Assembly: GCA_963760615.1 (NCBI GenBank)
Contig: CAVXDX010000008.1
Coordinates: forward strand, 32,001 to 96,000
Direction: 5' to 3'
Length of the DNA: 64,000 nucleotides
Source of the DNA: an uncultured Candidatus Micrarchaeota archaeon
GTDB lineage: Archaea; Micrarchaeota; Micrarchaeia; Burarchaeales; Fermentimicrarchaeaceae
The notes beneath the pieces were generated by a model. That model was not told the DNA's origin, did not search any database, and worked only from the letters and a program-made list of their open reading frames with translations. A program made the translations under genes and the position numbers. How positions within the stretch are numbered: the first letter of the stretch is position 1; each line of letters begins with the position of its first letter. Below are positions 1,266 to 42,562 of the stretch, in pieces.

Positions 1266-1378
1266 GGTAATAGTATTAATTCAGGGGGTATAAAAATTTA
1301 TGTAGACGATAGAGAGGGCGCAAGGCAAGAAAGAAGCTTGAGTCTGAAGCCCCGAGTTGGTTTTGACTCATGCTTTAG

Positions 1379-2687
1379 CAGAAGCGAGTGAGAAACCCAC
1401 ACTCTTGAGAGGTGGGATGAAAGCGAATCTATAAGAGAGGATTCAGATGCCCTAATAACAACTTCACTGGAAAGTTACCCCTCCCAGAGGTTTATAAAGG
1501 GAAAAATAACTTAAAATAACACCTATGAGCGCCTATAAATTCAGGATATACCCATCGAAGAATCAGGAAGGGCAAATGCAGACGCATCTCTGGCTGGCAA
1601 AGAACCTCTGGAATGAGATGCTTGCATTCACCAAGGAGATTTACAACAACCATGGAAAATTCCCAACAAAGAGAACCTTAAGGGAAATGGTCAAACAATC
1701 CGGTCTATTCTCCCAAGTTGGCCAGGAGCTTGTAGACAGGTTGATTGATGCTCTTCATAGGAAAATAGAGATGAAGAAAAACGGGGAGAAAGGCGGCTTC
1801 CCGCGCTTCAAGTCTCTTGACAGGATGAAAAGCTTATGTTACCCGCAATCTGGTTTCTGGCTTGACAAGAAACTCAAAGTGACTCCTTTTGGCGAGATTG
1901 CAATAAAGAAGCACAGGAAGATAGCCGGAAAAATCAAGACTCTTACTCTGAAAAGAGAACCAACGGGAAAATGGTTTGCTGTTTTCTGTGCCGACACTCC
2001 TAAAGAAACTCCAAAAGAAAACAAGGGAGAGGCAGTTGGAATTGACTTGGGCTTGAAGACATTTGCAACCTTGTCAAATGGAATGAAAATAGAAAACCCA
2101 AGGCATTCCAAAAAATATGAGGAGAGACTTGCCTTTGTTCAAAGAAAGTTTTCAAAGAGGGAAAGAAGAAGCAACAACAGGAAGCGAGCAAAACAGAGAC
2201 TCGCAAAACTGCATGAAAAAATTTCAGATTGCAGGAGGAACTTCCTGCACAAGATTTCGACTGAATTAGTGAATTATTATGCCCTCCTTGTATTGGAGAA
2301 ACTTGCCTCACAGGAAATGGCTGAACAGAATTACGGAAAGCAGATAAGAGATGCGGGATGGAGTATGTTTGCAAACATGCTTGCATACAAGGCGGAAGGA
2401 GCTGGATGCAGGGTAGTGTTTGTAGACCCTGAAAATACTTCGAAGATGTGCAGCAGATGCGAAAACATCAGAAATGATTTGACTCTGCGGGACAGGGTGT
2501 ATACCTGTCCTGAATGTGGGTTATCAATAGACAGAGATTTAAATGCTGCACGCAATATACTCATAAGAGCTACCCCTGGGCAAGGGGGAAGTAACGCCTG
2601 CAATTCCTTGCAGAAGGAGAGAGATGTTGCATTGGCAACGTCTGTGAAGCAGGAAGTGCTCACCCTTTAGTGGTGGGAACATGTCAC
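1379..2687 (+). mobile_element. IS200/IS605-family (IS1341-like, tnpB-only) element
   Basis: Left-end hairpin CCCAC...GGTGGG at 1396-1416 after TTTAG (1374-1378); tnpB; right-end hairpin CTCACC...GGTGGG then ACATGTCAC ending 2687; no tnpA. Confidence 0.75.
1525..2670 (+). CDS. tnpB: RNA-guided endonuclease TnpB
   Basis: N-terminal YKFRIYP; RuvC-I GIDLGL, RuvC-II LVLEKL, zinc finger CSRC...CPEC, RuvC-III DRDLNAARNI; all three acidic residues present. Confidence 0.95.
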   Translation: MSAYKFRIYPSKNQEGQMQTHLWLAKNLWNEMLAFTKEIYNNHGKFPTKRTLREMVKQSGLFSQVGQELVDRLIDALHRKIEMKKNGEKGGFPRFKSLDRMKSLCYPQSGFWLDKKLKVTPFGEIAIKKHRKIAGKIKTLTLKREPTGKWFAVFCADTPKETPKENKGEAVGIDLGLKTFATLSNGMKIENPRHSKKYEERLAFVQRKFSKRERRSNNRKRAKQRLAKLHEKISDCRRNFLHKISTELVNYYALLVLEKLASQEMAEQNYGKQIRDAGWSMFANMLAYKAEGAGCRVVFVDPENTSKMCSRCENIRNDLTLRDRVYTCPECGLSIDRDLNAARNILIRATPGQGGSNACNSLQKERDVALATSVKQEVLTL

Positions 2688-2703
2688 TTAATAAATTCCC
2701 CGC
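2560..2703 (+). ncRNA. Putative omegaRNA (scaffold overlapping tnpB 3' end plus ~16-nt flanking guide); 5' boundary approximate
   Basis: Established TnpB architecture; right end ...GGTGGGAACATGTCAC at 2687 followed by candidate guide TTAATAAATTCCCCGC. Confidence 0.5.
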
Positions 2704-2791
2704 TCTTGGGTTTCCTTACTAACAAACTCTTACAATTGAATAATTTTATAAGCTATGCGCTTCAAAAGCAATATGAAGTGATGGTGATCTA

Positions 2792-2983
2792 ATGAAAGGA
2801 AAAGTAAAGATGTTTAACACCGCGCGTGGTTTTGGATTTATCACGGGCGAAGACGGCAAGGACGTGTACGTGAACGTCTCGGAGATTCAAGGCGGTGCCG
2901 TGCTCGCAGTCGGCGATGCTGTAGAGTACGATGTTGAATCAGGCGAACGCGGGCCGCGTGCAAAGAACGTAAAAAAAGTCTAA
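2792..2983 (+). CDS. Cold-shock domain protein
   Basis: MKGKVKMFNTARGFGFIT...DVYV...GPRAKNV; RNP1/RNP2-like motifs. Confidence 0.92.
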   Translation: MKGKVKMFNTARGFGFITGEDGKDVYVNVSEIQGGAVLAVGDAVEYDVESGERGPRAKNVKKV

Positions 2984-3203
2984 AAGCGTTTGCGAAACCG
3001 TAGAATGCCGCTTCTAGGATTCATCCTCCTAGCCTAGCGCAAAAACGTTAGAAAAATAGGATATGAGGGTGCAAGGCAAGGATGAAACTTAAGCATTGGT
3101 CCTTAGTGTTTTGGTTAAAAACTCTCATCCATAAAACAACTAGTAAGGATATACCTTTTCCAACTAAAGGGGTTAAAAACATTTCCATAGTAAATTCTAT
3201 CGG

Positions 3204-4138
3204 GTGTTGGATACTCTCTTGTATATCATTGTCGGTCTTGCAATCCTGGCGAAAGCGAGCGATTATGCTGTAAAATCCATTGTTAACATAGCAAGGCTCT
3301 CTCATTTCAGCGAGTTCGCGGCAAGTTTTGTAATTGTGGGCATAGCATCGGTAATGCCCGAATTCTTCGTTGCTGTGACCTCATCACTAAATAACGTTCC
3401 GCATTTCGGTCTTGGGTCCTGCTGGGCTCCAATGTCATTGACTTGACATTGGTAATCGCATTGGTGGTGCTCATTGCCGGCAGGATAAAGATAAACACAA
3501 AATTTTTGCACTGGGGGAACTGGTATGTGATAATAACTGCACTTCCAGTTTTGCTTTTGCTGGATGGCTCCCTCTCGCCTCTTGATGGGGTAATTTTGGT
3601 ATTCGTGTTTCTCTTTTATGTTACATTCATCCTCGCAAGAGGCAGGAGGATGCTTGGCGGCAGGAGTAAGGAGGATTTTGGGAAATTCCTAAAAGAATCC
3701 ATCGTAGCAGTAGTAAGTCTAGCCATCATTTTCTGGAGTGCAAACCTCGTAGTGACCAATTCAGTAGCACTCTCTGAAAAACTGTCTTTCCCCCTTGTCT
3801 TCACTGGGTTTTTTGTCGCCTTTGGAACGTGTTTCCCGGAGTTTGTATTCGCGCTAAAAGCCGCAAAAGAGAAGCACGGCGAGCTCGGCATCGGCGCGAT
3901 AATGGGCGATGTGATAGTTGACGCAACTTTTTCAATAGGTGTTGTTTCTCTGATAAGTCCCATAACTCCGCCGCTGATTATGACTGTACTGAGCGGTCTC
4001 TTCATGATAGTAGCCTCTCTGGTCGTACTGCACTTCATAAAAAATGATAAGGAGATAACGCGGAACGATGGGGTCCTCCTCCTCATCCTCTACCTTCTAT
4101 TCGGCACTGTGGAATTGTGGGTTAAGGCAGTTACTTGA
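3204..4138 (+). pseudogene. Na+/Ca2+ antiporter (CaCA family), split by a one-base frameshift near 3416
   Basis: ORFs 3204-3446 and 3443-4138 join if one G is added in CTTGGGTCC, restoring GLGVLLGSNVIDLTL; alpha-repeat motifs IASVMPE and FGTCFPE. Confidence 0.75.
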
Positions 4139-4163
4139 TATTACCCATCCAAAGCAATTAAGC

Positions 4164-4273
4164 TTGCTGCAGAATTGGACACTTTTGTTAGGGGATTGAC
4201 GAAGAAGGGGCAAGACTATAGAATGATACACTATGCAGGGGGTGCAAGGCAAGAATGATGCTTGAGTCTGAGG
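4164..4273. repeat. att-like junction (integrase-side arm + 11-bp tRNA-Leu core at 4234-4244 + far arm)
   Basis: 4164-4249 matches 17791-17876 at 73/86 nt ungapped; contains TGCAGGGGGTG; 4245-4273 matches 1321-1349 at 26/29. Confidence 0.8.
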
Positions 4274-4307
4274 TTAATATATATTTTTAACTGAGTATAG
4301 GCATATC

Positions 4308-5570
4308 ATGGCGAGAAAGCAGATAAAACTCAAGAGGACTCTCAACCTGCTCGATGCAGTGTCAATAGGACTAGGAGCGATTATTGGAGCAGGGATATAC
4401 GTTGTCGTGGGCATAGCCGCCGGGGCTGCAGGACCGGGAGTGATGCTCTCTGTCATTTTCGCTGGCATCATAGCTTTGTTCACTGCCCTTAGCTTCGCAG
4501 CGCTCAGCTCCAGAATAACGAAGGAGGGAGGGGCATACGAGTATGTGTACGAATTAATCTCACCTTCCTTGGGTTTTTTAACCGGCTGGTTTTGGGTTTT
4601 CGGGCAGATTGTTGCAGGAGCAGCCGTGAGCCTTGGGTTTGCGACATACATGGCGGTGTTAATTCCGCTGCCGGTGAAGTTTGTTGCAGCTGGTGGTTGC
4701 CTGCTTTTCATGCTTCTCAACCTGATTGGCGTGAAGCAGTCCAGCCTCGTGAATGATGCACTGGTTGCATCAAAGATACTTGTGCTATGCATCTTTGTGG
4801 CAGTTGGAGCTTCCTACATAAAATTCTCGAATTTCACTCCACTTATGCCTAATGGATTTTCAGGAGTGGTGAGCGGAGCTGCTCTGATATTCTTCGCCTT
4901 TCTCGGTTATGGTAGGATAACCACAATCTCTGAAGAGGTGAAAAACCCCGAAAAGGTGGTGCCGCTCTCAATCCTGCTCGCCCTTGGGATATCCAGCATT
5001 CTTTACCTTCTTGTGGGTTTCACTGCAGTTGGCATTGTTGGTTCCAATGCGCTTTCTTCCTCAGGCTCGCCCCTTGCCATTGCAATGGGGGCAACTGGAA
5101 ACGGACTGGCAGTGCTGGTTGTATCCATTGGTGGGATTCTGGCAACGGCGAGCGTGCTTCTCACAACAGTGCTCGGTGTTTCAAGGGTGTCATTCTCTAT
5201 GGCGAGGAATAAGCAGATTCCAGAATTCATAAATGCAATTCATCCAAAATTCATGACTCCTTACATCTCGATACTTCTTACGGGATTCCTGATGGCTGCG
5301 CTTGCCTTTTTTGGGGATTTGAAGCAGGTTGTCTCGCTTGCCAGCTTCGCCGTGATATCAACGCATGTGCTAGTCAACTATGCTGCATTTAAGGTGAGGG
5401 ACAGGTGCAGCTTCAAAATACCATTCTGCCCTGTTCCGCCTCTGCTCGGGATGGTAAGTTGCGCAGCCCTGACGCTCTCCTTACTGCCTGATGTGTGGGT
5501 GGTGGCACTGGTTGTGCTGCTTGCAGGAGTTGTCTTTTACTCAATATACAAACTCGCGGTTGTACGCTAG
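4308..5570 (+). CDS. APC-family amino acid permease
   Basis: GAIIGAGIYV TM1 motif, GYGRITTISEEVKNP, about 12 TM segments. Confidence 0.9.
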   Translation: MARKQIKLKRTLNLLDAVSIGLGAIIGAGIYVVVGIAAGAAGPGVMLSVIFAGIIALFTALSFAALSSRITKEGGAYEYVYELISPSLGFLTGWFWVFGQIVAGAAVSLGFATYMAVLIPLPVKFVAAGGCLLFMLLNLIGVKQSSLVNDALVASKILVLCIFVAVGASYIKFSNFTPLMPNGFSGVVSGAALIFFAFLGYGRITTISEEVKNPEKVVPLSILLALGISSILYLLVGFTAVGIVGSNALSSSGSPLAIAMGATGNGLAVLVVSIGGILATASVLLTTVLGVSRVSFSMARNKQIPEFINAIHPKFMTPYISILLTGFLMAALAFFGDLKQVVSLASFAVISTHVLVNYAAFKVRDRCSFKIPFCPVPPLLGMVSCAALTLSLLPDVWVVALVVLLAGVVFYSIYKLAVVR

Positions 5571-5675
5571 GGGGAGGGTGTTGGAGTTTGGGTTTATAAA
5601 TCGCTTTTATAAAATTGTGCACCGAGTATTCAAAATTGCTCTCCGCGGAATTTCCTTTACTAAATATATTTAAAC

Positions 5676-5691
5676 TTTAGGTTCACCTAAA
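5676..5691. promoter_or_regulatory. DtxR/MntR-type operator
   Basis: Perfect inverted repeat TTTAGGT-TC-ACCTAAA between the TATA box (TTTAAA ~5669-5674) and the start of the DtxR-family gene. Confidence 0.75.
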
Positions 5692-5696
5692 TCAGC

Positions 5697-6338
5697 ATGC
5701 AAAAAATCAGCCCAGAGATTGAGGAGTACCTTGAGACAATCTACAGAATAAAAGAGAAGGGCAAGGATGCGAAAACTACCGAGGTAGCCGAGGAGCTTGG
5801 AGTCTCCCCTCCAAGCGTTAGCGAGATGTTCAGGAAGATGGCGAAGGATGGACTAATAAGATACAACCGCTACAGGGGCGCATCGCTGACCAAAAAGGGG
5901 GAGGAGATTGGAGGAGGGATACTCCACAAGCACAGGCTTATTCAGAAATTTCTTATATTCCTAGGGGTGAAGAGGAAGGTTCATGACCAGGCGTGCGCTC
6001 TGGAACACGTGGTTTCGGATGAGGTTGAAAATGCGATGCAAGATACGTTACTGCACGGTCCCCATTTGAGGAAGGATGTTGTAAGGCTCAGCGAGATGAG
6101 AGAAGGAGAGGAGGGCAAGGTAGCCTTCGTAATGGGTGGGAGAAGTGCTTCGCAGAGGCTTGCGGACATGGGCTTGACTCCAGGAAGCGGGGTGAAGATG
6201 TTGCGTGCTTCCAGCTATGGCGGTCCTCTGAACCTGAGCATTTGCGGCTATAGCCTCGCTCTTGGAATAGGTGTAGCGTCCAAGGTTTTCGTCCATGTTC
6301 ACCATCAGGAACATCACAGAGTCAAGAGGTCTGAGTAA
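5697..6338 (+). CDS. DtxR/MntR-family metal-dependent repressor with C-terminal FeoA domain
   Basis: EEYLETIY...SPPSVSEM HTH, KHRLI, ACALEH; FeoA motif RLADMGLTPG; His-rich tail. Confidence 0.9.
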   Translation: MQKISPEIEEYLETIYRIKEKGKDAKTTEVAEELGVSPPSVSEMFRKMAKDGLIRYNRYRGASLTKKGEEIGGGILHKHRLIQKFLIFLGVKRKVHDQACALEHVVSDEVENAMQDTLLHGPHLRKDVVRLSEMREGEEGKVAFVMGGRSASQRLADMGLTPGSGVKMLRASSYGGPLNLSICGYSLALGIGVASKVFVHVHHQEHHRVKRSE

Positions 6339-8270
6339 ATGAAAAAGCTGAAAGTTGCACTAGCAGGTAACGCAAACGTAGGCAAATCGGTGATTTTCAA
6401 CGATCTCACAGGGCTTCACCAGCACATAGGGAACTGGCCAGGCAAGACAATTGAGAGGGCAGAGGGCACGCTGCGCTTCGGGAAATATGAGGTGGACGTG
6501 ATGGACCTGCCTGGAATATACTCGCTCTCAACCTTTTCCCAGGAGGAGGTGATATCGCGCGGGTACATAGCAAAGGAGAAACCCGATGTTGTTGTGAATG
6601 TGATTGATGCTTCCGTTCTTGAGAGAAACCTCTTTCTGACCCTCCAGCTGCTGGAGCTTGAAGCGCCTCTTGTGATAGCACTGAATATGGTAGACAGCGC
6701 TAAGAAAAAGGGCATAGTGGTAGATTCAAAGAAGCTTTCGAAGATTCTGGGCGTGCCAGTCGTGGAAACTATCGCACCAAGAGGAATTGGCATAAAAGAG
6801 CTGATGGAGGCTGTTGTGGATGTTGCAGAAAATCCCAGGAAGCAGTTCAAGCCATCCTACAGCAAGCCTATAGAAGATGCAATCCGGAAGATGATGGTGC
6901 CTATTGAAAAATGCGATGTGGTGTACCCCCCTCGGTGGATGGCGATGAAGCTTCTTGAGTGCGATGCGGAGGTGGAGGAGTTAACCAGAAGAAAGTGCCC
7001 CTCCGTGCTTCCGCTCGCCAAAAAACTCAGGCAGGAACTGGAAGGCTCGAAGAAGGAGATATGCTCAATGGCAATAACTTCCGAGAAATACCTCATTTCA
7101 AAACGCATAATAGATGAAACCCAGAGAATAAAGACCCCTGAAAAACCATCCCTTGAGAGCAGGCTGGACGGGGTGCTTCTGCACAGGATATGGGGTTATG
7201 TATTTCTTATAGCAGTTGGAGTCGTGGTATTCGGATTGGTTTTCAGCATGGGGGGCTTGCTCTCCTCAGCCCTCTCTGATGTGCTGGTAGGATTAAAACT
7301 GCCTGTCAGAGAAGCTTTTGGAGGAGGACTTCTTGCGGATATCGTATGGAACGGCATATTTGAAGGCGTTATCGCAGGGATTACGATAGCCATACCGTAT
7401 ATCCTGCCATTCTATATACTGCTCTCTATTCTTGAGAGCTCAGGCTACCTTGCAAGGATGGCTTTTCTCATGGACAATGTGATGCACCAGATTGGGCTTC
7501 ACGGGAAAGCATTCATCCCGCTTATACTCGGATACGGGTGCAATGTCCCAGCGTGCCTCGGCTGCAGGGTTATGGAGGACGAGAGGGAGAGGATTACGGC
7601 AGGGTTTGTCGTTACTTTGGTACCTTGTTCCGCGAGAACCGTTGTCATACTTGGGCTGGTTGGAACCTTTCTGGGTTTGAAATGGGCTCTGGCGATATAC
7701 GTGTTCAATCTCCTTGTCATATTCCTTCTTGGAAGGCTGGCATTCAAGATTCTGCCAGGCGAGCCAATGGGCCTGATAATGGAGATGCCGCCCTACAGGA
7801 TGCCCCAAATGGACTCTATCGCGAAGGAGAGTTGGGGGAGGATTAGCGATTTCGTTCTCATGGCATTCCCGGTGATAATCATCTCAACGTTCGCAATAGA
7901 GCTGTTCTATCTCGCCGGACTCGTGCAGGTGATTTCAAACCTGCTGAGCCCAATAACTGTTGGCTGGCTAGGGCTCCCCGCGGTTATTGGCATAACACTC
8001 ATATTCGGAATTCTCAGAAAGGAGCTAACACTCATAATGCTGGCGAGCGCATTTGGAACGCAGAATTTTGGAGCAGTTCTCAGCCCAGTTCAGATGGTCG
8101 TTTTCACATTGGTGACACTTTTCTACATTCCATGTGCCGCCACAATAAGTGCCCTTGTTAAAGAGTTTGGGTGGAGAAAAGCGCTTTACATAACAGTATT
8201 CGAAATAGGGTTCGCCTTGCTGCTGGGAGGGATAGCATTTAGGCTGCTGAGCATTTCTGGAGTTCTCTAA
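6339..8270 (+). CDS. feoB: Ferrous iron transporter B
   Basis: GNANVGKS, GNWPGKTIE, DLPGIYSL, NMVD GTPase motifs; gate motifs GYGCNVPA, VPCSAR, YIPC. Confidence 0.96.
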   Translation: MKKLKVALAGNANVGKSVIFNDLTGLHQHIGNWPGKTIERAEGTLRFGKYEVDVMDLPGIYSLSTFSQEEVISRGYIAKEKPDVVVNVIDASVLERNLFLTLQLLELEAPLVIALNMVDSAKKKGIVVDSKKLSKILGVPVVETIAPRGIGIKELMEAVVDVAENPRKQFKPSYSKPIEDAIRKMMVPIEKCDVVYPPRWMAMKLLECDAEVEELTRRKCPSVLPLAKKLRQELEGSKKEICSMAITSEKYLISKRIIDETQRIKTPEKPSLESRLDGVLLHRIWGYVFLIAVGVVVFGLVFSMGGLLSSALSDVLVGLKLPVREAFGGGLLADIVWNGIFEGVIAGITIAIPYILPFYILLSILESSGYLARMAFLMDNVMHQIGLHGKAFIPLILGYGCNVPACLGCRVMEDERERITAGFVVTLVPCSARTVVILGLVGTFLGLKWALAIYVFNLLVIFLLGRLAFKILPGEPMGLIMEMPPYRMPQMDSIAKESWGRISDFVLMAFPVIIISTFAIELFYLAGLVQVISNLLSPITVGWLGLPAVIGITLIFGILRKELTLIMLASAFGTQNFGAVLSPVQMVVFTLVTLFYIPCAATISALVKEFGWRKALYITVFEIGFALLLGGIAFRLLSISGVL

Positions 8271-8409
8271 ACTGCGAATCCTCTATTTGCTGAGAAGCTC
8301 CATCGACTTACCGTAGCATCCCAAGACTCCCCCGCCAACTTTTGTTATCAGTACTTCATTCCCCATCGCTGCATCCGTACCTCTCTCCAACTTTCTTAAC
8401 CCTCAGCAT

Positions 8410-8631
8410 TCAGTCATGCTCCTTGAAAGCTGCATCCTGAACAGGGTCGTTCTTCCTCAGCCATTCCATCAGCATCGCCGTATGCTCCTTCTCCTCATCC
8501 ATATTGTGCTGCAGAACTTTCTTCAGTTCAGGATCCGTTGCCGGCCCTATCCTCGACTGGTATTTGTTTATCGCGTCAAGCTCTTCAATCATCGACTGCC
8601 TCGCCATCCCCAAATCCTCCGGTTTTCCCAT
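8410..8631 (-). CDS. Small ferritin-like protein (encapsulated-ferritin/EncFtn-like)
   Basis: ARQSMIEELDAINKYQ...HNMDEEKEH diiron motifs; SD GGAGGTGA before ATG at 8631. Confidence 0.8.
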   Translation of the reverse strand: MGKPEDLGMARQSMIEELDAINKYQSRIGPATDPELKKVLQHNMDEEKEHTAMLMEWLRKNDPVQDAAFKEHD

Positions 8632-8635
8632 CCAA

Positions 8636-9499
8636 TCACCTCCAAACAATTCTCTCTATCTCCCCAACCATCTTTCTGAAAGCATACGCAGCTTTTCCCT
8701 TCCCAAGCACAGGAGGCACTCCATCCGCAAGCAGACGTGGCACCTCCTCGTCATATGGTATTCTTGCAACGAGCTTCCTCCCAAATTTCCTGAGAGCCTT
8801 CCTCTCGTTCCTCTTGGATATGCCCTCCTTGTTCATAACAACGCAGTATCGTATCCTGAAATGCCTCACGACCTGCAGAGCCCTCTCAAGGTTGGCTGCA
8901 CCCGCAGGTGTTGGCTCGAGAACTCCTACCGCATACTCGCATCCAGCAACAGCTGCTATCACCGGGCATCCTATCCCCGCAGGTGCATCTACAAGCACAA
9001 GCTCAGCACCCCTCCTCCCAGCTATCTCATCCCCAAGTCTCCTCGCCTCATGCACGATTCTCCCGCTCCCCGACTCCCCTGGGAGAAGCCTTCCGTAAAC
9101 CAGCAGGAAGCTTTCAGTCTCTCTCACAACCATCTCTCCGCTCAGCTTTGGAGCAAGCCTGATAGCACCGTTGGGGCATGCAAGAACACACGCGCCGCAT
9201 CCCTCACAGCGAAGCTCATCAACTTCAATCCTCTCTCCAGTCGCCAGTGCTCCGAACTGGCATGCTTTCAAGCACTCCCCGCACAGCTTGCATTTCTTCC
9301 TGTCAACAACCGCAATTTTTGATGCATATATCTCCTCCTTTCTGACATCCCTTCCGGGGAAAATAATATGCTGGTTCGGGCAGTCAGCATCCCCGTCGAC
9401 CAGCACCAGCTTCCTTCTCTTTGACAGCTCCACTGCTAGCGATGAGACTACACAGGACTTGCCAGTTCCGCCCTTTCCGCTCAGAACGACGATTCTCAT
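8636..9499 (-). CDS. MinD-superfamily P-loop ATPase with inserted 2x[4Fe-4S] ferredoxin domain
   Basis: SGKGGTGKS, DGDADCPN, CKLCGEC...C / CEGCGAC...CP, DAPAGIGCP. Confidence 0.88.
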   Translation of the reverse strand: MRIVVLSGKGGTGKSCVVSSLAVELSKRRKLVLVDGDADCPNQHIIFPGRDVRKEEIYASKIAVVDRKKCKLCGECLKACQFGALATGERIEVDELRCEGCGACVLACPNGAIRLAPKLSGEMVVRETESFLLVYGRLLPGESGSGRIVHEARRLGDEIAGRRGAELVLVDAPAGIGCPVIAAVAGCEYAVGVLEPTPAGAANLERALQVVRHFRIRYCVVMNKEGISKRNERKALRKFGRKLVARIPYDEEVPRLLADGVPPVLGKGKAAYAFRKMVGEIERIVWR

Positions 9500-10326
9500 C
9501 TCACCATCTTTTCTGCAAGCTTGAAGAAATCCTTGGAGATGGGATTCTCGGGGTATCTCTCAACGATGGGCACTCCATCCACGTAACATTCAATCATTTT
9601 TTTATCGTAAGGAATTTGCATCAATGCATGTTTTACTCTTCTTTTCGAAATAGTGCTCCTGTTAACAATCAGATCATATCCTATCTCGAGTTTTCTCAGA
9701 ACGGATTCAATGACTTCCAAGTCATGAATGCCAAACAAGGTGGGTTCAGTCACAGCTATTGCTCTGTCGCATCCATCAAGCGCGCGAACCACCTGGCAGT
9801 GTGCTCCTGCAGATGTGTCGATTATGAAAACCTCCCCTCTCCCTTCCCCCAACCCCCTGATTTTAATCGCGTCAACTATCTTCTCTGAAAGGGGCTCTGA
9901 TGGTTTGAGCTCACCGGAGAAGAGCTCCACTCCATATTTTTCAGTTTTATACGTCCATCCAACAGTTTTCTCTTCTTCCCGTATTGCATTATGAGTACAA
10001 GCCAAGACGCATGCTCTGCATCCGTTGCAGATTGGCTCGAGTAGGGTGGGGATCTTTCCCGGAAGCTGGTATAATGCATTCAGCTCACACACCTTCACGC
10101 ATTTCCCGCATTTTCTGCATTTCCCGCTGTTAAAATGAGGTATGAAGGAAGTCACCTCCCTCTTCATCCTTCTCCTGGCACCCATAACGATGTGCGCGCT
10201 GGGGCAGTCCGCATCACAATCAAGATAGGTAACTCTTCTCCCAGTTTTAGCAATAGCAACAGCTAGGTTTACAGCCACAACAGTCTTGCCCGTTCCCCCC
10301 TTTCCACCAGTAACCCCAATGATCAT
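9496..10326 (-). CDS. MinD-superfamily P-loop ATPase with inserted ferredoxin domain (paralog)
   Basis: GGKGGTGKT, DCDADCP, CRKCGKC / CNGCRAC, DTSAGAHC. Confidence 0.88.
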   Translation of the reverse strand: MIIGVTGGKGGTGKTVVAVNLAVAIAKTGRRVTYLDCDADCPSAHIVMGARRRMKREVTSFIPHFNSGKCRKCGKCVKVCELNALYQLPGKIPTLLEPICNGCRACVLACTHNAIREEEKTVGWTYKTEKYGVELFSGELKPSEPLSEKIVDAIKIRGLGEGRGEVFIIDTSAGAHCQVVRALDGCDRAIAVTEPTLFGIHDLEVIESVLRKLEIGYDLIVNRSTISKRRVKHALMQIPYDKKMIECYVDGVPIVERYPENPISKDFFKLAEKMVR

Positions 10327-10343
10327 AAGAGAAACACATCCAC

Positions 10344-10694
10344 TCAGTGCTTGCAGACGTTTTCATCTGCCTTTAACTCACCCTTGAGATATTTCTCAAC
10401 AGCATCCTTAATCCTGCCCTGGACCCCGAAGATGATTTTTATTCCCAGGGATTCGAACATCGCAAGTGCTCTGCTGCCCATCCCTCCGGTTATCATCAAA
10501 TCCACATGGAGGGAGGAGATGAACTTCGGAACTGCGCCTTGGACGTGGTTTTGGAAATAGGGGTTCTCCACTCTCTCCACCTTTATTATTTCCTCACCCT
10601 TGCTTTCCACGATGACGAACTCAGGACACCTGCCAAAATGTTCAGAAACCTCCCCATCAATTCCTCCTCCTGCTGATGATACGGCTATTCTCAT
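10344..10694 (-). CDS. NifB/NifX-family (FeMo-co biosynthesis-like) protein
   Basis: VSEHFGRCPEF, ITGGMG. Confidence 0.85.
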   Translation of the reverse strand: MRIAVSSAGGGIDGEVSEHFGRCPEFVIVESKGEEIIKVERVENPYFQNHVQGAVPKFISSLHVDLMITGGMGSRALAMFESLGIKIIFGVQGRIKDAVEKYLKGELKADENVCKH

Positions 10695-11095
10695 AGCATC
10701 CTCCTACCTCTCCTTCCGAAACCCATTCCAAAATGGCCGGACACATTCGGTGCTGTTACGCTGGGAAGTTTGCCCTCAAGAAGTTTTGTCACAGCATCCC
10801 CAACTTTTCCTGCGGAGGAATAGACACTTACGCCTGCTTGCATGAGCACAGCCATGGCATTGGGGCCGCAGTTGCCTGTTATAAGGCTATTTGCTCCGCT
10901 GTTAATAACTGCTTGCGCAGCAGCTATTCCCGCACCGCCGCCAGCCATCGCTCCGGGGTTGGGTATCACTTCTGTTTTTAGTATCCTCTTCTCCTTTTCG
11001 TCAACCTCAAGAAGAGTGAAAGTGGGGCATCTGCCAAACATCGGGCATATCAAATCGCCTACTCCGCCCTTGGACGTAGATATAAGTATTTTCAT
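10691..11095 (-). CDS. NifB/NifX-family protein with Gly/Arg tail
   Basis: PMFGRCPTF, GAGIAAAQ, ITGNCGPNA; start taken at MKILIS. Confidence 0.85.
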   Translation of the reverse strand: MKILISTSKGGVGDLICPMFGRCPTFTLLEVDEKEKRILKTEVIPNPGAMAGGGAGIAAAQAVINSGANSLITGNCGPNAMAVLMQAGVSVYSSAGKVGDAVTKLLEGKLPSVTAPNVSGHFGMGFGRRGRRML

Positions 11096-11105
11096 GCGCT
11101 CACTT

Positions 11106-11393
11106 TCACTGCTGAGGCTTCTCAAGCTCCGCTATTCTCTTCTTTATTTCCTCAAGCTCAATCCTCAGTTCCTCGGAGTAGGACTTAAGCTCTTGGAGCT
11201 CCTGTTCCTTGCTCGGTTGCGGAAGCGTGGTGCTCTGGGTGCTTGGAAAACCACTTGAATACGTCATTCTCCAGCTAAACCCACGGCCGAATCCCCTCCT
11301 CCCACCAGGGCCAAAATCTGAGCCGAAGCCTCTTCTCCAGCATCTCCAATTTCCTCCGCCCCACCAGGGACCTGTTCCATCTCCCCACGGCAT
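11106..11393 (-). CDS. DUF5320-like Gly/Arg-rich protein with coiled-coil tail
   Basis: MPWGDGTGP start; GRRGFGRGF; ELKSYSEELRIELEEIKKRIAELE. Confidence 0.8.
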   Translation of the reverse strand: MPWGDGTGPWWGGGNWRCWRRGFGSDFGPGGRRGFGRGFSWRMTYSSGFPSTQSTTLPQPSKEQELQELKSYSEELRIELEEIKKRIAELEKPQQ

Positions 11394-11479
11394 TCTAATC
11401 ACCTCTTTTTTTTATAAGTTCCAAATAACCTAAAAGACAATGTTGCATGGTAGCTTTTTCAGTACTTGTAATCTATCCT

Positions 11480-11590
11480 TCACCAGCCTCTTCCTTTGCC
11501 CGTTCTTTTGGTCTCAGAGCATCCGCCTCGCCCTCTGTTAGCACGTCTGCCCGTTCCCGAACCATCTCTCTTTGGTTTACCATACGGCAT
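11480..11590 (-). CDS. 36-aa Gly/Arg-rich peptide (DUF5320-like N-terminus), missed by ORF track
   Basis: MPYGKPKRDGSGTGRRANRGRGGCSETKRTGKGRGW; SD GAGGTG upstream; lies between DUF134 and DUF5320 genes. Confidence 0.55.
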   Translation of the reverse strand: MPYGKPKRDGSGTGRRANRGRGGCSETKRTGKGRGW

Positions 11591-11600
11591 CTATTCCACC

Positions 11601-11906
11601 TCATTTTTGCTTTTTTATCAGGGAGTAATTCCCCCCATGAATCTTGATTGCCTTGCCCTTTGTGAGCGCCTCGGCAACCTTTCTTCTCGCTGATTTGAGG
11701 AGCCTGTGCAGCGTCGGTTGCGATATCTTAATCCTTTTCGCCACTTGCACCTGCTCCAATCCCTCGTAATCTTTCAGCCTGAGCGCCTCAAACTCCTCGA
11801 CGCTCAGCTCCACCTCCTTCAGCTCAATGAGCGGTATTGCTCGGGGCTTGAAGTAGGTCACTCCGGGCTCGGCGTAAACCATTTTGCATTTCTTCGGTCT
11901 TACCAT
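11601..11906 (-). CDS. DUF134 family predicted DNA-binding protein
   Basis: MVRPKKCK...YFKP...EEFEALRLKDYEGLEQ...ISQPT...ARRKVAEAL..GKAIKIHGG. Confidence 0.9.
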   Translation of the reverse strand: MVRPKKCKMVYAEPGVTYFKPRAIPLIELKEVELSVEEFEALRLKDYEGLEQVQVAKRIKISQPTLHRLLKSARRKVAEALTKGKAIKIHGGNYSLIKKQK

Positions 11907-11981
11907 AATGAATATATATGCGTAACACATATTTATAAATCTTTCTGCATATATATTCATAACTGTCCTAGGTGGCTTGAC

Positions 11982-13076: not shown

Positions 13077-13095
13077 AATTATCACGGGTGTAACT

Positions 13096-13899: not shown

Positions 13900-13905
13900 T
13901 GAGGT

Positions 13906-14460
13906 ATGGAAAATATGGTACCAAAAAAATTATTCTTGACTAAGGGTGTGGGAAAAGACGTGGATCCTTTATCTTCTTTTGAGCGCGCCTTGAAAGACGC
14001 GGGAATCGAGAAATGCAATCTGGTGAACGTCTCGAGCATTCTGCCTCCCAACTGCGAGATAATTCCAAGAGAGAAGGGAGTTGAAATGCTTAAGCCTGGG
14101 CAGATGACCTTCGTGGTGATGAGCAGGAATTCCTCAAATGAGCCGAGCAGACTAATAGCAGCATCAATAGGCGTGGCAATTCCTAGTGATAGGTCCATGT
14201 ACGGCTACCTCAGCGAGTATCATTCATTTGGGGAAACTGATGAGAAGGCAGAGGAGAAGGCGGAGGATTTGGCTGCGTGCATGCTTGCATCAACTCTTGG
14301 CATAGACTTTGATATGAACCAGAGCTGGGATGAGAAAGAGCAGCTCTTCAAGCTCAGCGGCAAGATAGTCAAAACAAGAAATGTTGCCCAGTCTGCAATT
14401 GTTGACAAGGATGGGATGTGGACAACTGTCCTTGCTGCCGCAGTCCTGCTTCTTGATTAG
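13906..14460 (+). CDS. pdaD: Pyruvoyl-dependent arginine decarboxylase
   Basis: [25 protein letters not shown] (SS cleavage site), YGYLSEYH. Confidence 0.92.
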
Positions 14461-33530: not shown

Positions 33531-33759
33531 AGTAGCTCCCTCCGCTTAGTGCTTGAGCGATTATTGGCGCGAGAAATAGCAGCGATAGGCCAATGAACAC
33601 GCCAAAGAGTATCTCTTTCCATTCGTTGCGCGTGTTTGGATTTTGAGAGGTCATTAGCACGAAGCCGCCGTAGGAAATTATTAGGACTGAAGAAACTACT
33701 GCAAGGCTCTTGAGGAATACGGCGATTTGCGATAGGTCGAGCAACTTCACCACCCGCAA
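33523..33759 (-). CDS. TrbC/VirB2-like pilin
   Basis: Two hydrophobic helices: IISYGGFVLMTS...RNEWKEILFGVFIGL..LFLAPII. Confidence 0.75.
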   Translation of the reverse strand: MRVVKLLDLSQIAVFLKSLAVVSSVLIISYGGFVLMTSQNPNTRNEWKEILFGVFIGLSLLFLAPIIAQALSGGSYCV

Positions 33760-34055
33760 ATGTCGCCCGCGCCAACCAGGTTTTTCACAACAAGCGGAGC
33801 TATCCAGATTATTATCAAGCCCAGGATCACCCCGGTTAACAGCATCTTGCTCTGGTTTCTCTCGTTGATTTCATTACTGCTGGTCAGAATGAAGCCAGCG
33901 TAAGCCGCTATCAATACGCCCGCTACTGTTCCAAAGACCCTTATCATTCCATAAAGCCGGCATACGGGCTGATCCGTAGGAATGCTCAGGTCGGCCGCCG
34001 CAACGCCGACTAGGCTCAGCAAAGCCAAGCTCGCTAAAATCAACTGTTTTCTCAT
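33747..34055 (-). CDS. TrbC/VirB2-like pilin with leader peptide
   Basis: Signal ...VAAA, then IAAYAGFILTSS...RNQSKMLLTGVILGLIIIWIAP; paralog of the next pilin. Confidence 0.78.
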   Translation of the reverse strand: MRKQLILASLALLSLVGVAAADLSIPTDQPVCRLYGMIRVFGTVAGVLIAAYAGFILTSSNEINERNQSKMLLTGVILGLIIIWIAPLVVKNLVGAGDICGW

Positions 34056-34056
34056 G

Positions 34057-35510: not shown

Positions 35511-35605
35511 AAACGTGGAAGGAAAGCCCAGAAGGAACTTTCTCGGTTGTCCTTGGGAAGCAAGGTTAATATATTTCACAATACTAACTACTCCTTAGTG
35601 CGGTT

Positions 35606-35986
35606 ATGGAAAAGAAAACTTCTGAAAAAGAACAAACGAACTCTGGTGCACCCATTGTTATTCTCTTATTGTTATTGGTTTTTCTTTTACAATTTACCGG
35701 AGTAGTCAGGGAGGAAGCAGTAGCCTTCTTATTAGTAATTAGTATCTTTGTATTATGGAAAACCATTCATGAAAGAAGGCTAGCTGGTCTGCTAAAATAT
35801 TTAATCGTAGCTGCGTATTGCTTTTATTATGAGTTTTTAACGCTTTCACTATCAAGAGAAACATTTGATATCGAGAAAGTAATATACATAGGTCTTGGTA
35901 TTTTTGTCTTCTGGTACTTTTTATATCACCTTGCAGACATGGTGCAATTCTTTTCCAGTAAGAAAAATAAATCAAAGCAAGTTTAA
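35606..35986 (+). CDS. Hypothetical 4-TM membrane protein
   Basis: 126 aa, four hydrophobic segments. Confidence 0.7.
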   Translation: MEKKTSEKEQTNSGAPIVILLLLLVFLLQFTGVVREEAVAFLLVISIFVLWKTIHERRLAGLLKYLIVAAYCFYYEFLTLSLSRETFDIEKVIYIGLGIFVFWYFLYHLADMVQFFSSKKNKSKQV

Positions 35987-37186
35987 TCTATCCCTAAAGA
36001 TAAATCCATAGATTCCCGTAAATAGCAAAAAAATCCCAAACCAAGCGATAAAGATTATGAAATAGCTAACAATTAAACTGTTGAACTCGGGTTTTGCATA
36101 TGAGTCTACACTTGGGCTAAAAGTGACACCCGGCCATGACCTAACGAAATGTGTTTCATTGATGGGTATATACTCTGGCTCTGTTTTCAAAATTTCATCC
36201 AAATGTATATTGGATTCGAATATCCATTGGTAAATAAAATCTTTATCAAATTTATAAGGAGTACATCTTGTCTTTCCATAAGGGATCAAAAATTCCGTCT
36301 GATTGTTGTTAAAGTTTATAGTAACATTCACCTCTTTATCAATAAATCCACTTTTATAAACCATTTTTGTATCATTATCCACAAAACATATGTCGTACCA
36401 TCTTAAACTAAAAGGTATCTGCAAAGCATCTTTTAACAAGTTTCTAAAAGTTGGTTCTGAAAATGACTGGTCTGATACTCGTACTTTTACGACAATTGTT
36501 CCATTATTAAGTGTTTGTTCTTCTCGGGATAACTCAAGTCTTTCAGAAGGCGGGAATAAGTAAAATGAAAACAAAAATGGTGGTATAAATAAAATAAATA
36601 AACATATTAAAATCCAGGGTATGCCCTTCACCTTATTTTTTTTATTTTTGTTCGTAGAAATCCTCTCATTTGAAACTTTCTGAGGGGGCATCTTAGCCGC
36701 AACCTTCTTATTTTTCTCTCCTTTCATCATCATTTCAATTTCATCTCTGATTATGGTGAACTTATCTATAAAATGTTTTTTAGCATCTTCAAATTGCAAC
36801 GTGTATGATACGTCAAGAAGAAATAACATTGCATTCATAAGTACTCCAACTGTAAAAAAATATGCTAGATATACAATGTTCCCAGTCTCTTCATGCTTTA
36901 TAAGCAATTGGACCATGACTACCAAGAGACCCACTAAAATACCAACCGCAAGTCCACTGGTAGTTGCATTAAAGTAAGACACACGGTTTTCAAAATCCAT
37001 CTTTGGAATCGTTAATTCAAGTTCGAGTAGTTTTAACTTATCTGCTTTGCTCAAATCTTCATCAGAGGTGATGGAACCCAGCCGCTCTGAAACATTATAT
37101 TCCAGTTGGTGAATCCCAAAAAGTACTTTTTTCATGTATTCTAAGAATCTTATACATCGTCTGAATAGCCCTTCCAGGAACTTCAT
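35972..37186 (-). CDS. Hypothetical membrane protein
   Basis: Two N-terminal TMs, basic linker, TM-soluble-TM C-terminal half; start possibly 37138. Confidence 0.7.
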   Translation of the reverse strand: MKFLEGLFRRCIRFLEYMKKVLFGIHQLEYNVSERLGSITSDEDLSKADKLKLLELELTIPKMDFENRVSYFNATTSGLAVGILVGLLVVMVQLLIKHEETGNIVYLAYFFTVGVLMNAMLFLLDVSYTLQFEDAKKHFIDKFTIIRDEIEMMMKGEKNKKVAAKMPPQKVSNERISTNKNKKNKVKGIPWILICLFILFIPPFLFSFYLFPPSERLELSREEQTLNNGTIVVKVRVSDQSFSEPTFRNLLKDALQIPFSLRWYDICFVDNDTKMVYKSGFIDKEVNVTINFNNNQTEFLIPYGKTRCTPYKFDKDFIYQWIFESNIHLDEILKTEPEYIPINETHFVRSWPGVTFSPSVDSYAKPEFNSLIVSYFIIFIAWFGIFLLFTGIYGFIFRDRLNLL

Positions 37187-37299
37187 AGAGTAAGTATTAT
37201 GTATTCAAATTTTTAATCTCTCCCCTTCTCCGTAGCTTGCTCCTCAAGCCAAAGCAATCTTAATATATCTTTAAAGACTAACTATTGCTGAGGTTAGCA

Positions 37300-38871: not shown

Positions 38872-38937
38872 TGTAATAGTATCGGTAGCAGGAAAAGAAA
38901 AAGAAGCCAAAGCAAGGTTAATATACATTAATAATAT

Positions 38938-39546
38938 ATGAAAAGTGTGGAAGTGAGTTATTTGGTTGATATCAGCAAAATTCTAATGAATAAATATCTG
39001 ATTATTAGTGTCATTGGTCCTCATGCTGGCGAAGAAATAAACCAAATATTTAATAGAAAAAAGAAAGAGATAGCCGATTCGGGGAAATCGTTTTGGCTAA
39101 TTAGATCCCATAAAGCTACATCTGATAAGATTCAAAAAATTTGTAAAGAAGGAGGGATATACTGCATCTTTATTGAACCCTCTCGAAAAAGTGGATCTCA
39201 AGATACGAAAAATGCATCGGAGGCAAATCAGTATTCTGAGGATAAGATAAAGTGGTCGGGTATACGAGATAAGATTAAAGTAACTGGAAAAATTGATACT
39301 AATGCCACAGCGCTTGTTTTTAGTAGTTTAGAGCGGAGTGATGGTTCAATAAATTTATGGGATTACTCGGATTTTAACAAGCTTGGTGAACCTATTAAGA
39401 TTATGCAAGGTGCATCGACGCTTTGCTGCGTTAAACAACCTTGTTCAAAAGAGCATGAGATCAAGCGGATGAAATCAAAGAATAGGAAGATAGCTGGTTT
39501 TGGCAGGTTGATTGAACCTTTCGGAGTTTGGTTGAGGAAAATCTGA
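38938..39546 (+). CDS. Hypothetical soluble protein
   Basis: 202-aa ORF with own promoter motif; no family recognised. Confidence 0.7.
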   Translation: MKSVEVSYLVDISKILMNKYLIISVIGPHAGEEINQIFNRKKKEIADSGKSFWLIRSHKATSDKIQKICKEGGIYCIFIEPSRKSGSQDTKNASEANQYSEDKIKWSGIRDKIKVTGKIDTNATALVFSSLERSDGSINLWDYSDFNKLGEPIKIMQGASTLCCVKQPCSKEHEIKRMKSKNRKIAGFGRLIEPFGVWLRKI

Positions 39547-40958: not shown

Positions 40959-41024
40959 ATGGCCGTGTTGCCGCTTGCAAGGGTTGAGAAGCTCATAAGG
41001 AAGGCGGGGGGTCGTGGACACTAA
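40959..41024 (+). pseudogene. Truncated canonical archaeal histone (N-terminal 18 residues)
   Basis: MAVLPLARVEKLIRKAGG-RGH*; matches the LP.A...RLI.KAG alpha1 signature, then stops. Confidence 0.65.
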
Positions 41025-41077
41025 GATGCCGAATTCTGCACGAACCAATAAGATAACCGCTAGCTCCAGAGTCTAGC

Positions 41078-41200
41078 ATGGAAGACGAGAAACTGTCGTT
41101 AGACGAACTTAAGCCGTTATTGCCGTCGTGGCTTTGGGAATTGAAAAAGAAGGTAAAGGAAGAGCGCGAACGGAATTCAGAGTCGTTTTTCAAAGCCTAG
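41078..41200 (+). CDS. 40-aa hypothetical peptide convergent with integrase B
   Basis: MEDEKLSLDELKPLLPSWLWELKKKVKEERERNSESFFKA; could be spurious. Confidence 0.3.
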   Translation: MEDEKLSLDELKPLLPSWLWELKKKVKEERERNSESFFKA

Positions 41201-42382
41201 TTGGACGGCTTTCTTGTAGAGGAATTCCTTGAACTCCGCGTCTTTCATCAACGCGTTCATCAACTCGTCGCCATTCTTGCGCTCGTCCTCAACTTGAGCC
41301 ATTACTTGCGCATCCATTGGAGTACCGCAACGCAGGCAGAACTTGGCTATCGGCGAGTTCTTTTCCTTGCACCGATGGCATAAGCGCACCTTCAATTGTT
41401 CTTCATTCTTGTCTTCAGGTTTTGCCAAGCCTTGCAACGCCAACAATGCGTTGTCGACGTCTCGGCCGCTCAAGTGAACGTATACCGACGCCATTTCCGA
41501 GGATTGAACCCAGCCGAAGTATTCCTTCATTTGAGCTTCAGTCAATTTATCGGCTAGGAACGTGGCACGGGAGTGACGGAACAAGTGGGCGTAAACGCGT
41601 TTCTTGACTCCCGCTTTTTCCGCCAAGCGTTTTATCATAAAGTCAATGGAACGGTGTTCAGCGGGCTGGTTTTTGTTCTGGTAGTTGGTTGCCAAAGGCG
41701 GCCACAAAGGAGCTTCCGGGTCTCCCGCGTGGGCGTACACTTCAATCCAAGACGTCAGCGTGGGTGCCGAGCTGATGATCCGTACTCTTCTGTCGCCAGT
41801 CTTTCCCGTTACTCGCAAGATTGCGCCGTACTGATCGAAGATCACGTTCTTCATTCGCAGGCTGAGCATTTCGCCAATTCGGCAGCCGGATTCGTATAAG
41901 ACAAGAATCAGGGCCTTGTCACGGGGGTTGTTCGCTGCTTCCGCCAGTTTGAAGATCTCTTGCTCGCTTAAGAGCTCTTCGGGCAGCTTGTGCGCGTGAT
42001 TGTTGAGCCTAGGCTTCAACCAGCTGATTTCCGGCGGGAAAGTCTCGTCGTTTCCCTTCAGCCACTTGTAGAATATCTTCAGAATGACTTTGAAGTCGTA
42101 CTTCGAGTTCTCGGCGTACTTTTGGTTCTCGATTTCGCCGACTAGCTCGATCAAATCGTTTTTTGAGGCTTGCTCGAAAGGCATTTTCAGCCAATGCGAG
42201 AGAAAACGCAGGCCGTACATGCACTTGACGACCCTTAGGCGGCTAGATCCTTTCGCCAGGCGCACTTTCGAGAACGACAGAATCAGCTTCTTGTTCTCTG
42301 GACAGACCAGCGCGTCTTTTTCCACCCGAGCGCACGACTGCTCGAAATTCTTCATGCTCTTGTGCACTTCAAACCCGTTCAT
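41177..42382 (-). CDS. Tyrosine recombinase/integrase B with C-terminal zinc ribbon
   Basis: YESGCRIGE, GKTG, HLFRHSRAT, MASVYVHLS, CHRC...CLRC; clearly homologous to integrase A. Confidence 0.95.
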   Translation of the reverse strand: MNGFEVHKSMKNFEQSCARVEKDALVCPENKKLILSFSKVRLAKGSSRLRVVKCMYGLRFLSHWLKMPFEQASKNDLIELVGEIENQKYAENSKYDFKVILKIFYKWLKGNDETFPPEISWLKPRLNNHAHKLPEELLSEQEIFKLAEAANNPRDKALILVLYESGCRIGEMLSLRMKNVIFDQYGAILRVTGKTGDRRVRIISSAPTLTSWIEVYAHAGDPEAPLWPPLATNYQNKNQPAEHRSIDFMIKRLAEKAGVKKRVYAHLFRHSRATFLADKLTEAQMKEYFGWVQSSEMASVYVHLSGRDVDNALLALQGLAKPEDKNEEQLKVRLCHRCKEKNSPIAKFCLRCGTPMDAQVMAQVEDERKNGDELMNALMKDAEFKEFLYKKAVQLGFEKRL

Positions 42383-42476
42383 GCCTATCTTCCTCCGCGG
42401 AAGGGTCTTATCGGGTTTCGCGCCAAATTCGGCACGAACGTGCCAAACTGGCTAGTGCTTTGAAACGTGGTAGCAG

Positions 42477-42562
42477 TGCAGGGGGTGGGATTTGAACCCA
42501 CGAACCCGCTAAGGGACGAGGTCCTGAGCCTCGCACATTTGACCATGCTTTGCTACCCCTGC
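42477..42562 (-). tRNA. tRNA-Leu(CAG)
   Basis: GCAGGGG/CCCCTGC acceptor stem, CGAGG-CTCAGGA-CCTCG anticodon arm, long variable arm, GTGGG-TTCAAAT-CCCAC. Confidence 0.95.

Follow-up and report, generated by a model that had tools for sequence, protein, structure and literature searches.

A tandem array of mobile units beside a tRNA-Leu gene of an uncultured Micrarchaeota archaeon, very probably built by repeated site-specific integration

Tandem arrays of genomic islands anchored in one tRNA gene (tDNA) are resolved by the Islander approach (PMC4383910) and have been noted for archaeal elements that carry tyrosine recombinases (PMC6563490; PMC8371274). In bacteria, stacked islands with possible cis-mobilizable remnants occupy ssrA of Dehalococcoides (PMC3146451), the remnants of such accretion (cis-mobilizable elements, CIMEs) being proposed to be either co-mobilised or fixed (PMC3146451; PMC5704250), and among the tycheposons of Prochlorococcus newcomers push older elements into the island, with fragmented integrases and partial tRNAs as the outcome (10.1101/2020.12.28.424599). 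For archaea, a gene-capture model (She et al. 2001, as recounted in PMC8371274) has plasmids and viruses integrated at tRNA genes decay and their genes become trapped. Here we analyse a stretch of 64,000 nucleotides (hereafter the window; contig CAVXDX010000008.1) from a Candidatus Micrarchaeota genome of the DPANN archaea (a metagenome-assembled genome, MAG, of 1.14 Mb in 16 contigs; G000), in which a cold-shock protein (csp) unit, an antiporter unit, an iron island (unit A) and a conjugative-plasmid-like element (unit B) lie in a row beside a gene for tRNA-Leu(CAG). On the strength of its sequence features, we consider it very probable that repeated site-specific integration at this tRNA gene built the array, which spans 1310-42487. 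Coordinates without a contig label are window positions; C1, C7, C8, C13 and C14 are contigs of G000, G002 is Candidatus Fermentimicrarchaeum limneticum Sv326 (the nearest complete genome and, with G001, among the five sampled congeners, i.e. the genus of Ca. Fermentimicrarchaeum), G006 belongs to another genus, and L-numbers denote loci in other genomes or contigs.

The locus shares with described tDNA islands (PMC4383910; PMC6563490; PMC8371274) an intact tDNA at one end, displaced 3' fragments of it as direct repeats, a tyrosine integrase for each complete island and the presence of several islands on one tDNA; it differs from them in its DPANN host (Micrarchaeota), in an identity segment of 11 bp and in its XerA-related zinc-ribbon integrases, a family that we did not find in a review of archaeal recombinases (in which the word 'zinc' is absent). 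The tycheposons of Prochlorococcus (10.1101/2020.12.28.424599) are likewise cargo-bearing tyrosine-recombinase elements at tRNAs that carry nutrient-uptake genes, including those for iron; their hosts, however, are bacteria, whereas in the present array no tycheposon-type helicase/primase module was seen and one unit is a conjugative-type plasmid. As in the CIMEs of streptococcal ICEs (integrative and conjugative elements) as well as in the Dehalococcoides islands, integrase-less units bounded by attachment sites stand beside complete elements on one target, but the Dehalococcoides islands use serine recombinases at ssrA, and the remnants described here have eroded cores. In classical archaeal gene capture, SSV-type integrases split their own gene upon integration; here, in contrast, integration leaves the integrase genes unbroken, and they disappear through deletions at a later time. 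In the literature searched, we found no paper on this integrase family or on tRNA-Leu arrays in Micrarchaeota. Taken together, we regard the locus as a clear example of a known process, and not as a new recombination system or an integron-like one.

The integration target is the tRNA-Leu(CAG) gene at 42476-42562 on the minus strand (ARAGORN and Rfam), the last 11 nt of which (42477-42487) read TGCAGGGGGTG on the plus strand. The first-pass annotation of this DNA had reported that this 11-mer repeats exactly at 4234-4244 and 17861-17871, and an exact search agrees: copies start at 4234, 17861 and 42477, three in the window where chance predicts 0.01. A scan of the entire 16-contig genome, which the same annotation had suggested, found no copy elsewhere, i.e. 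the window's three are all the occurrences. The cores at 17861 and 4234 have the same orientation as the 3' end of the tRNA, and the intact tRNA lies at one end of the row, which is the arrangement that Islander looks for. Within units A and B, a search that tolerated two mismatches in the core yielded no convincing further junction.

Both intact units are equipped with their own tyrosine integrase (PF00589), IntA (16553-17758, minus strand) within 4245-17860 and IntB (41177-42382, minus strand) within 17872-42476. The two are members of one family, are intact, measure 401 amino acids (aa) each including a C-terminal zinc ribbon, and are 55% identical; both read away from their core, the distance from start to core being 102 nt for IntA and 94 nt for IntB, in keeping with the earlier description of homologous integrases in the same orientation about 100 nt from the cores. 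The closest solved structure is the archaeal XerA of P. abyssi, with which the catalytic R, HxxR and Y align, and archaeal XerA is also the best NCBIfam-type model (102 bits against a cut-off of 220, i.e. short of an equivalog assignment). An assignment of IntA and IntB to the XerA resolvases of chromosome dimers is not supported: the scores stay below the XerA cut-off, and G000 has three family members (IntA, IntB and a copy on C14), all of them terminal in a mobile element. The search for IntA relatives in genome contigs gave 149 places, nearly all of them from Micrarchaeota and often with several per genome. A tRNA-Leu isoacceptor lies directly beside the integrase in at least 9 of 60 Micrarchaeota loci (by ARAGORN), a lower bound because our reading of an alignment shows at least one further locus with an apparently intron-containing tRNA-Leu that ARAGORN misses; whenever ARAGORN places a tRNA immediately upstream of the integrase, it is a tRNA-Leu (CAG, TAA, TAG or GAG). 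Exact look-up in public assemblies retrieved a single Logan contig for IntA (as a gene list) and no match for IntB.

Two other loci with integrases of this family were recorded. Another Micrarchaeota genome (JAPLWX010000050.1) contains a tandem pair of IntA-like integrases (L039 and L040; 77-78% aa identity to IntA) that share one orientation and are separated by 8.3 kb; their upstream arms are almost the same in sequence, and no tRNA was detected. Outside the window, G000 has a VirB4/Cdc6 element of about 20 kb at a tRNA-Glu(CTC) gene (C14:55248-75711), flanked by a direct repeat (55312-55410 and 75612-75711) with an exact run of 27 bp and further exact blocks over approximately 100 bp; its integrase (66% identical to IntB) is located at the end distal to the tRNA, a mirrored layout that recurs in G003 and L093.

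From left to right, the array consists of the PQQ flank, junction 1, the csp unit, junction 2, the antiporter unit, junction 3, unit A, junction 4, unit B and, at the right end, the arm of IntB with the core that belongs to the tRNA. We name the integrase-proximal arms W or X, and R the conserved distal (P') arm of 26 nt, which has the pattern CAAGGCAAG-N7-CTWGAGTCTG; arm profiles were built from the copies in the window, in relatives and in metagenomes. Junction 3 (4160-4271, plus strand; exact match, BLAST and profiles) comprises a W arm without integrase (4160-4233), the exact core (4234-4244) and the arm R3 (4245-4271), and junction 4 (17759-17871, plus strand; core match and profile) comprises the IntA-proximal arm X, with the TATA-like box of the integrase, and the exact core (17861-17871). 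An ungapped comparison of 4161-4254 with 17788-17881 (94 nt) gives 83% identity, the BLAST alignment (70 nt) gives 87%, and neither an integrase to the left of 4234 nor an integrase remnant in 4139-4160 was found; the first-pass annotation was thus right that the 4234 junction resembles the one at 17861 and has no integrase. By its sequence, junction 3 looks like an attP of the IntA type. In the whole genome, the W profile matches only 4160-4244 and 17777-17871, the core-plus-R profile matches only at 4234, 1316 and 3067 (nhmmer E-values of 1.6e-5 for junction 1 and 1.8e-3 for junction 2), and neither arm type has a match beyond these junctions. Junction 1 (1310-1347, plus strand; repeat family D4) has an eroded core at 1310-1320 that retains 7 of the 11 bases, followed by R1, an arm of the IntA type, and its orthologues in G002 and G004 have an exact core; junction 2 (3061-3098, plus strand; repeat search) has a core at 3061-3071 eroded to 6 of 11 bases, followed by R2, and the identical eroded core follows csp in both G002 and G003. 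The left chromosomal flank is formed by a PQQ/beta-propeller (pilin-like) gene (3-1265, minus strand; Pfam PQQ_2) and by the segment upstream of it (about 1266-1309), which is the conserved outer flank of the array; gene and flank adjoin the outermost core in G002, G003, G004 and G006. A core-like word (9/11) at 1280-1290 was considered as a junction and rejected, as it belongs to the outer flank conserved in G002 and G004.

We account for these features by no fewer than four separate events of site-specific integration at the 3' end of tRNA-Leu(CAG). In every event the circle coming in would have carried an attP of three parts (the arm next to the integrase, the terminal 11 nt of the tRNA and a short arm on the distal side), and a XerA-related tyrosine integrase would have recombined it with the tRNA's copy of the 11-mer; the tRNA would thereby be rebuilt and the displaced 11-mer left at the far end, as is standard for tDNA islands. 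The csp and antiporter units would since have lost their integrase by deletion and seen their cores erode, the csp unit being later struck by an IS605 element. On the whole the distal end would be the more decayed one, loss and insertion may also take place at internal attP-like junctions, and the net effect would be gene capture, with accessory genes of mobile elements fixed beside the tRNA.

The brevity of the core (11 bp) and the nature of the assembly (a MAG with an estimated contamination of 2.6%) would be compatible with a chance or regulatory motif, or with a chimeric contig joined at repeats, yet we consider this extremely improbable: the copy number far exceeds expectation, with all copies accompanied by family-specific arms and integrases, homologous arrays exist both in a congener whose genome is complete and in metagenome contigs of independent origin, the A-B junction recurs with the same gene order in a second public assembly (a Logan contig), and the arms are too short and too divergent to mislead an assembler. 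Several observations limit the case for repeated integration. The identity segment is only 11 bp long; no circular junction was seen among metagenome contigs searched with the B-junction pattern; none of the relatives examined has an unoccupied site, all being occupied; and the cargo of unit A has a composition typical of the host, so that its arrival within an IntA element is something we infer, and a deletion that removed the junction between two older units might instead have brought the cargo next to IntA.

Comparison with relatives shows a conserved frame and variable content, i.e. the PQQ flank on one side and the tRNA with its right-hand genes on the other are retained, and what lies between them differs; G002, G004 and G006 share the flanks and have neither the cargo of A nor B, the distribution that Islander expects of an island. 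In G002, the outer flank is followed by an exact core with R, a Fic unit, an eroded core with R, the csp unit and an eroded core with the start of R, after which come a deletion junction, the 5' remnant of an integrase with W, a W-core-R junction, an 11.7-kb element, W, core and tRNA. The remnant amounts to the first ~20 codons of an IntA-type gene together with its W arm, and we therefore conclude that older units lose their integrase by deletion; the 11.7-kb element, which holds restriction-modification genes and an IntA of 96.5% aa identity, lies beside the same tRNA. G003 has one unit of which just an R arm and part of a W arm, fused to each other, are left, in G004 the distance from flank to tRNA is only about 4 kb including an IntA of 95% aa identity, and in G006 an AbiE pair and a W arm adjoin the tRNA without any integrase. 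Furthermore, six metagenome contigs carry IntA (95-98% aa identity) either adjacent to the tRNA or at internal junctions of the W-core-R or W-core-other-element type, and tRNA-Leu(CAA) is a second target, at which congeners have accumulated these arms as well. The notion of a tandem stack of integrations at tRNA-Leu in a DPANN archaeon, put forward in the first-pass annotation, is supported by this variability and by the integrase deletions.

The same annotation had read the array as ordered by age. Core erosion, integrase loss, the insertion sequence (IS) hit and the split gene occur in no units but the tRNA-distal ones, three species have the csp unit in common, and the iron cargo of A and unit B were found in G000 only; this fits a scheme in which newcomers enter at the tRNA copy and displace older units outward. 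Counting against a strict order by age, the Fic unit of G002 lies distal to the shared csp unit, and in two metagenome contigs an extra integrase-less arm is located between IntA and the tRNA; gains or losses of units thus take place at internal junctions as well. The internal junctions have a complete attP-like layout (arm, core, arm), and insertion or excision at them is accordingly to be expected. Thus, the age-ordered part of the claim holds for the distal decay and for B as the unit of most foreign composition, and it is weakened where internal gains or losses intervene; a strict age order is plausible and not proven.

The internal arm-core-arm layout and the Fic unit would also suit a working cassette system, in which the resident integrases move integrase-less units in trans, after the manner of integrons or CIMEs, and the order reflects shuffling instead of history. 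To this may be added the csp unit, which is 95% identical to that of G002 and 94% to that of G003, against 77-82% for the flanking core genes, and which is found at a different depth in each array (0 kb from the outer flank in G000, 1 kb in G002, about 4 kb in G003; G004 has no csp unit). In the same comparison IntA is 89% identical at the DNA level between species, and these similarities above those of the neighbours point to a recent exchange of pieces. The conservation of csp is, however, explicable by constraint, which may contribute to the high identity of its unit, or by homologous recombination. The cores that bound the csp unit and the antiporter unit have eroded, with 7/11 and 6/11 bases left, IntA and IntB are not of the IntI type, the junctions lack attC-like folding and no circular cassette was found. 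In genome contigs, the end of the csp unit was matched only in the two known congeners. We consider cassette shuffling unlikely, and it is just as improbable that the tRNA-Leu locus is a tDNA-anchored functional analogue of an integron whose single-gene units are exchanged between species by integrases of the IntA/IntB type. Were it so, the locus would shuttle genes for stress, defence and transport among Micrarchaeota species.

The likeness to integrons, which the first-pass annotation had also invoked, does not go beyond a row of gene units parted by recombination sites and adjoining a tyrosine recombinase; unlike in integrons, there is here no IntI-type integrase, no arrangement of attI and a common promoter (Pc) and no attC hairpin, and the intact units have their own integrases. 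The integrases score 48 and 41 bits with integron-integrase models (cut-off 265), and the folding of the junctions (4160-4275 and 17786-17900) does not surpass that of shuffled sequences on either strand (z from -0.71 to +0.46). Instead of a single integrase with attI and common promoter, two integrases are present, one within either unit and both pointing away from the junction. The permease gene of unit A and the integrases have AT-rich, TATA-like stretches in front of them, as judged by reading the sequence. We accordingly drop the integron comparison and retain repeated integration at the tRNA.

Unit A (13.6 kb) combines IntA, an AbiE toxin pair and a 10-kb cargo of iron/Fe-S and transport genes, as the first-pass annotation had indicated in assigning to it an iron module and an integrase. 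The cargo (4308-14460; Pfam) encodes an amino-acid permease, DtxR/FeoA, FeoB, two MinD-type Fe-S ATPases, two NifX-like proteins, a DUF5320 protein, a thioredoxin-like membrane protein, an Mrp/NUBPL ATPase and a second copy of the pyruvoyl arginine decarboxylase (PvlArgDC; 13906-14460), the native gene being located at C8:178432-178953 in synteny with congeners. The DNA of 3100-15000 is missing from the five congeners except for the permease (G001 only, where the match begins exactly at the core) and the arginine decarboxylase gene, and FeoB was not found in them by protein search. G006 has the entire iron/Fe-S module in synteny (59-82% aa identity), at a locus without tRNA, arms or integrase, and the genes that flank it there are 326 bp apart on C1 of G000. 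Judged by its absence from congeners, its position in G006 and the second decarboxylase copy, the cargo of A is accessory.

The G006 module, with a divergence near that of core genes, and the host-like composition of the block might also be taken to mean that 4.3-14.5 kb is older chromosomal DNA, captured or relocated, beside which a small IntA element (~14.5-17.9 kb) landed and the intervening junction was deleted. Elements of this size do exist, since relatives have IntA elements of down to about 4 kb with the 114-bp repeat region right after the integrase. Against this stand the absence of any arm or core remnant between 4272 and 17776 in the profile searches, the start of the block exactly at an intact core with distal arm, the failure to find FeoB in the congeners, and the adjacency on C1 of the genes that flank the G006 site. 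We hold such a relocation to be doubtful, at a low probability, and prefer integration of the cargo at the tRNA.

The backbone of the IntA element includes a stretch of 630 bp without coding capacity, in which two tandem copies of 114 bp (14511-14734; repeat family D2) are embedded; they have an 84% match directly downstream of IntA in G004 and could be an origin or an accessory binding region. The AbiEii toxin gene and its upstream partner (15088-16186, minus strand; Pfam AbiEii), a putative antitoxin without a family match, are bracketed by 40-bp direct repeats (14715-14754 and 16292-16331; family D10), and AbiEii with its partner is also found beside integrases or arms in G003, G006 and L119. 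A VirB4-like remnant was looked for in 14400-15150 and none was found. With respect to the decarboxylases, the two PvlArgDC genes are 88% identical in aa sequence and the DNA of the copy in the island has 82-85% identity to the native genes of congeners, the mean identity between G002 and G000 over the 5-kb native PvlArgDC block being only about 70%. Other archaeal phyla, represented by L137 (Altiarchaeota) and L132 (Bathyarchaeia), have FeoB homologues at most 4-7 kb away from VirB4/PrgI-like genes or from a fragment of an integrase, which hints at ferrous-iron uptake genes as a recurrent cargo of archaeal mobile elements.

Unit B (17872-42476; 24.6 kb; Pfam and NCBIfam) resembles a conjugative plasmid and encodes a VirB4-like ATPase (27688-30105), a PrgI/TrsD-like protein (30089-31681), a pilin-like protein (33747-34055) and Cdc6/Orc1 (26238-27365), besides two DNA methyltransferases, a restriction endonuclease-like protein, Shedu, a beta-CASP hydrolase, a CAP-domain protein and IntB. 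The VirB4-like protein falls in the CD1110 family (289 bits against a cut-off of 325) and has a Pfam TraG P-loop, the PrgI/TrsD-like and pilin-like matches being weak; a transfer ATPase and mating-channel proteins, as expected of an ICE, are present, and the earlier designation of B as an ICE is upheld to the extent that its genes are of conjugative type. No relaxase or coupling protein had a Pfam match among some 22 open reading frames (ORFs) scanned (a few, including VirB4, also against NCBIfam), an absence that is not proven because several ORFs of B match no family. The composition of B lies in the 1.3% tail of the genome and is foreign, and B is absent from the five congeners save for one beta-CASP gene. 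The pattern of its left junction has no match in metagenome contigs, a result that is neutral with regard to a circular form of B.

Some genes and motifs of B have counterparts elsewhere. The VirB4-like protein bears an extra C-terminal domain (aa 651-804; 27688-28150) with counterparts of 28-34% identity in L017:7561-8433(-), L022:47-904(+) and L120:5086-5532; in G002 and G003 the counterparts form the C-terminal part of separate ORFs of 285-290 aa beside integrases or an AbiE module (no Pfam family), and in a metagenome contig a matching stretch adjoins an integrase. This domain might assist the integrase or the transfer system in DNA processing, as a partner of either. The beta-CASP/RNase J-like gene (21355-22785) has a chromosomal counterpart of 84% DNA identity in G002 (C1:455150) and in G004, and G000 has just one more copy, a paralogue of 36% aa identity in the C14 element. 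The gene was either captured from a host or is shared with another element. Finally, an AT-rich motif of 36 nt, AAGCAAG-N-TTAATATAT, occurs in five copies in B (21352-21387, 35552-35587, 35969-36004, 37246-37281 and 38904-38939) and is probably the element's own type of promoter.

The csp and antiporter units, which have no integrase and are remnants, not islands, correspond to the older units that the first-pass annotation had described as reduced to one or two genes, and their content agrees with that description. The csp unit (1310-1378 plus 2688-3060) has as its cargo a cold-shock protein gene (2792-2983, plus strand; NCBIfam Csp families) and is interrupted by an IS200/IS605-family insertion (1379-2687, plus strand; TnpB ORF 1525-2670; Pfam OrfB_IS605 and a Cas12f1-like TNB domain), which would thus lie inside the oldest unit; G002 and G003 are collinear across 1378/2688 without it, and further copies of the IS are located on C7, C13 and C8. 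The antiporter unit has as its cargo a Na+/Ca2+ antiporter gene (3204-4138, plus strand; NCBIfam and Pfam) split over two frames, of which the first (3204-3446) matches positions 1-72 of the NCBIfam calcium/sodium antiporter model and the second (3443-4138) Pfam Na_Ca_ex; a DNA search of the five congeners did not find it. The sole exact core that bounds an integrase-less unit is the one at 4234, the others being eroded, and present-day mobilisation of the distal units is therefore doubtful. Outside the array, ARAGORN reports a tRNA with a four-base anticodon at 49446-49538, which Rfam likewise matches as a tRNA (43 bits); on both counts, it is probably an intron-containing archaeal tRNA.

In DPANN archaea, the genomes of which are tiny and the gain of genes by which is poorly understood, this locus offers one concrete route, in which a widespread Micrarchaeota integrase family that targets tRNA-Leu delivers conjugative-type plasmids and cargo islands. 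The cargo in the present case is a complete module for ferrous-iron uptake and Fe-S functions, absent from the five sampled congeners, and the decay of the element that brought it would be what fixes it in place. Moreover, the well-defined attP/attB sequences and the two intact integrases make the process testable, and they would be useful in a phylum without genetic tools.

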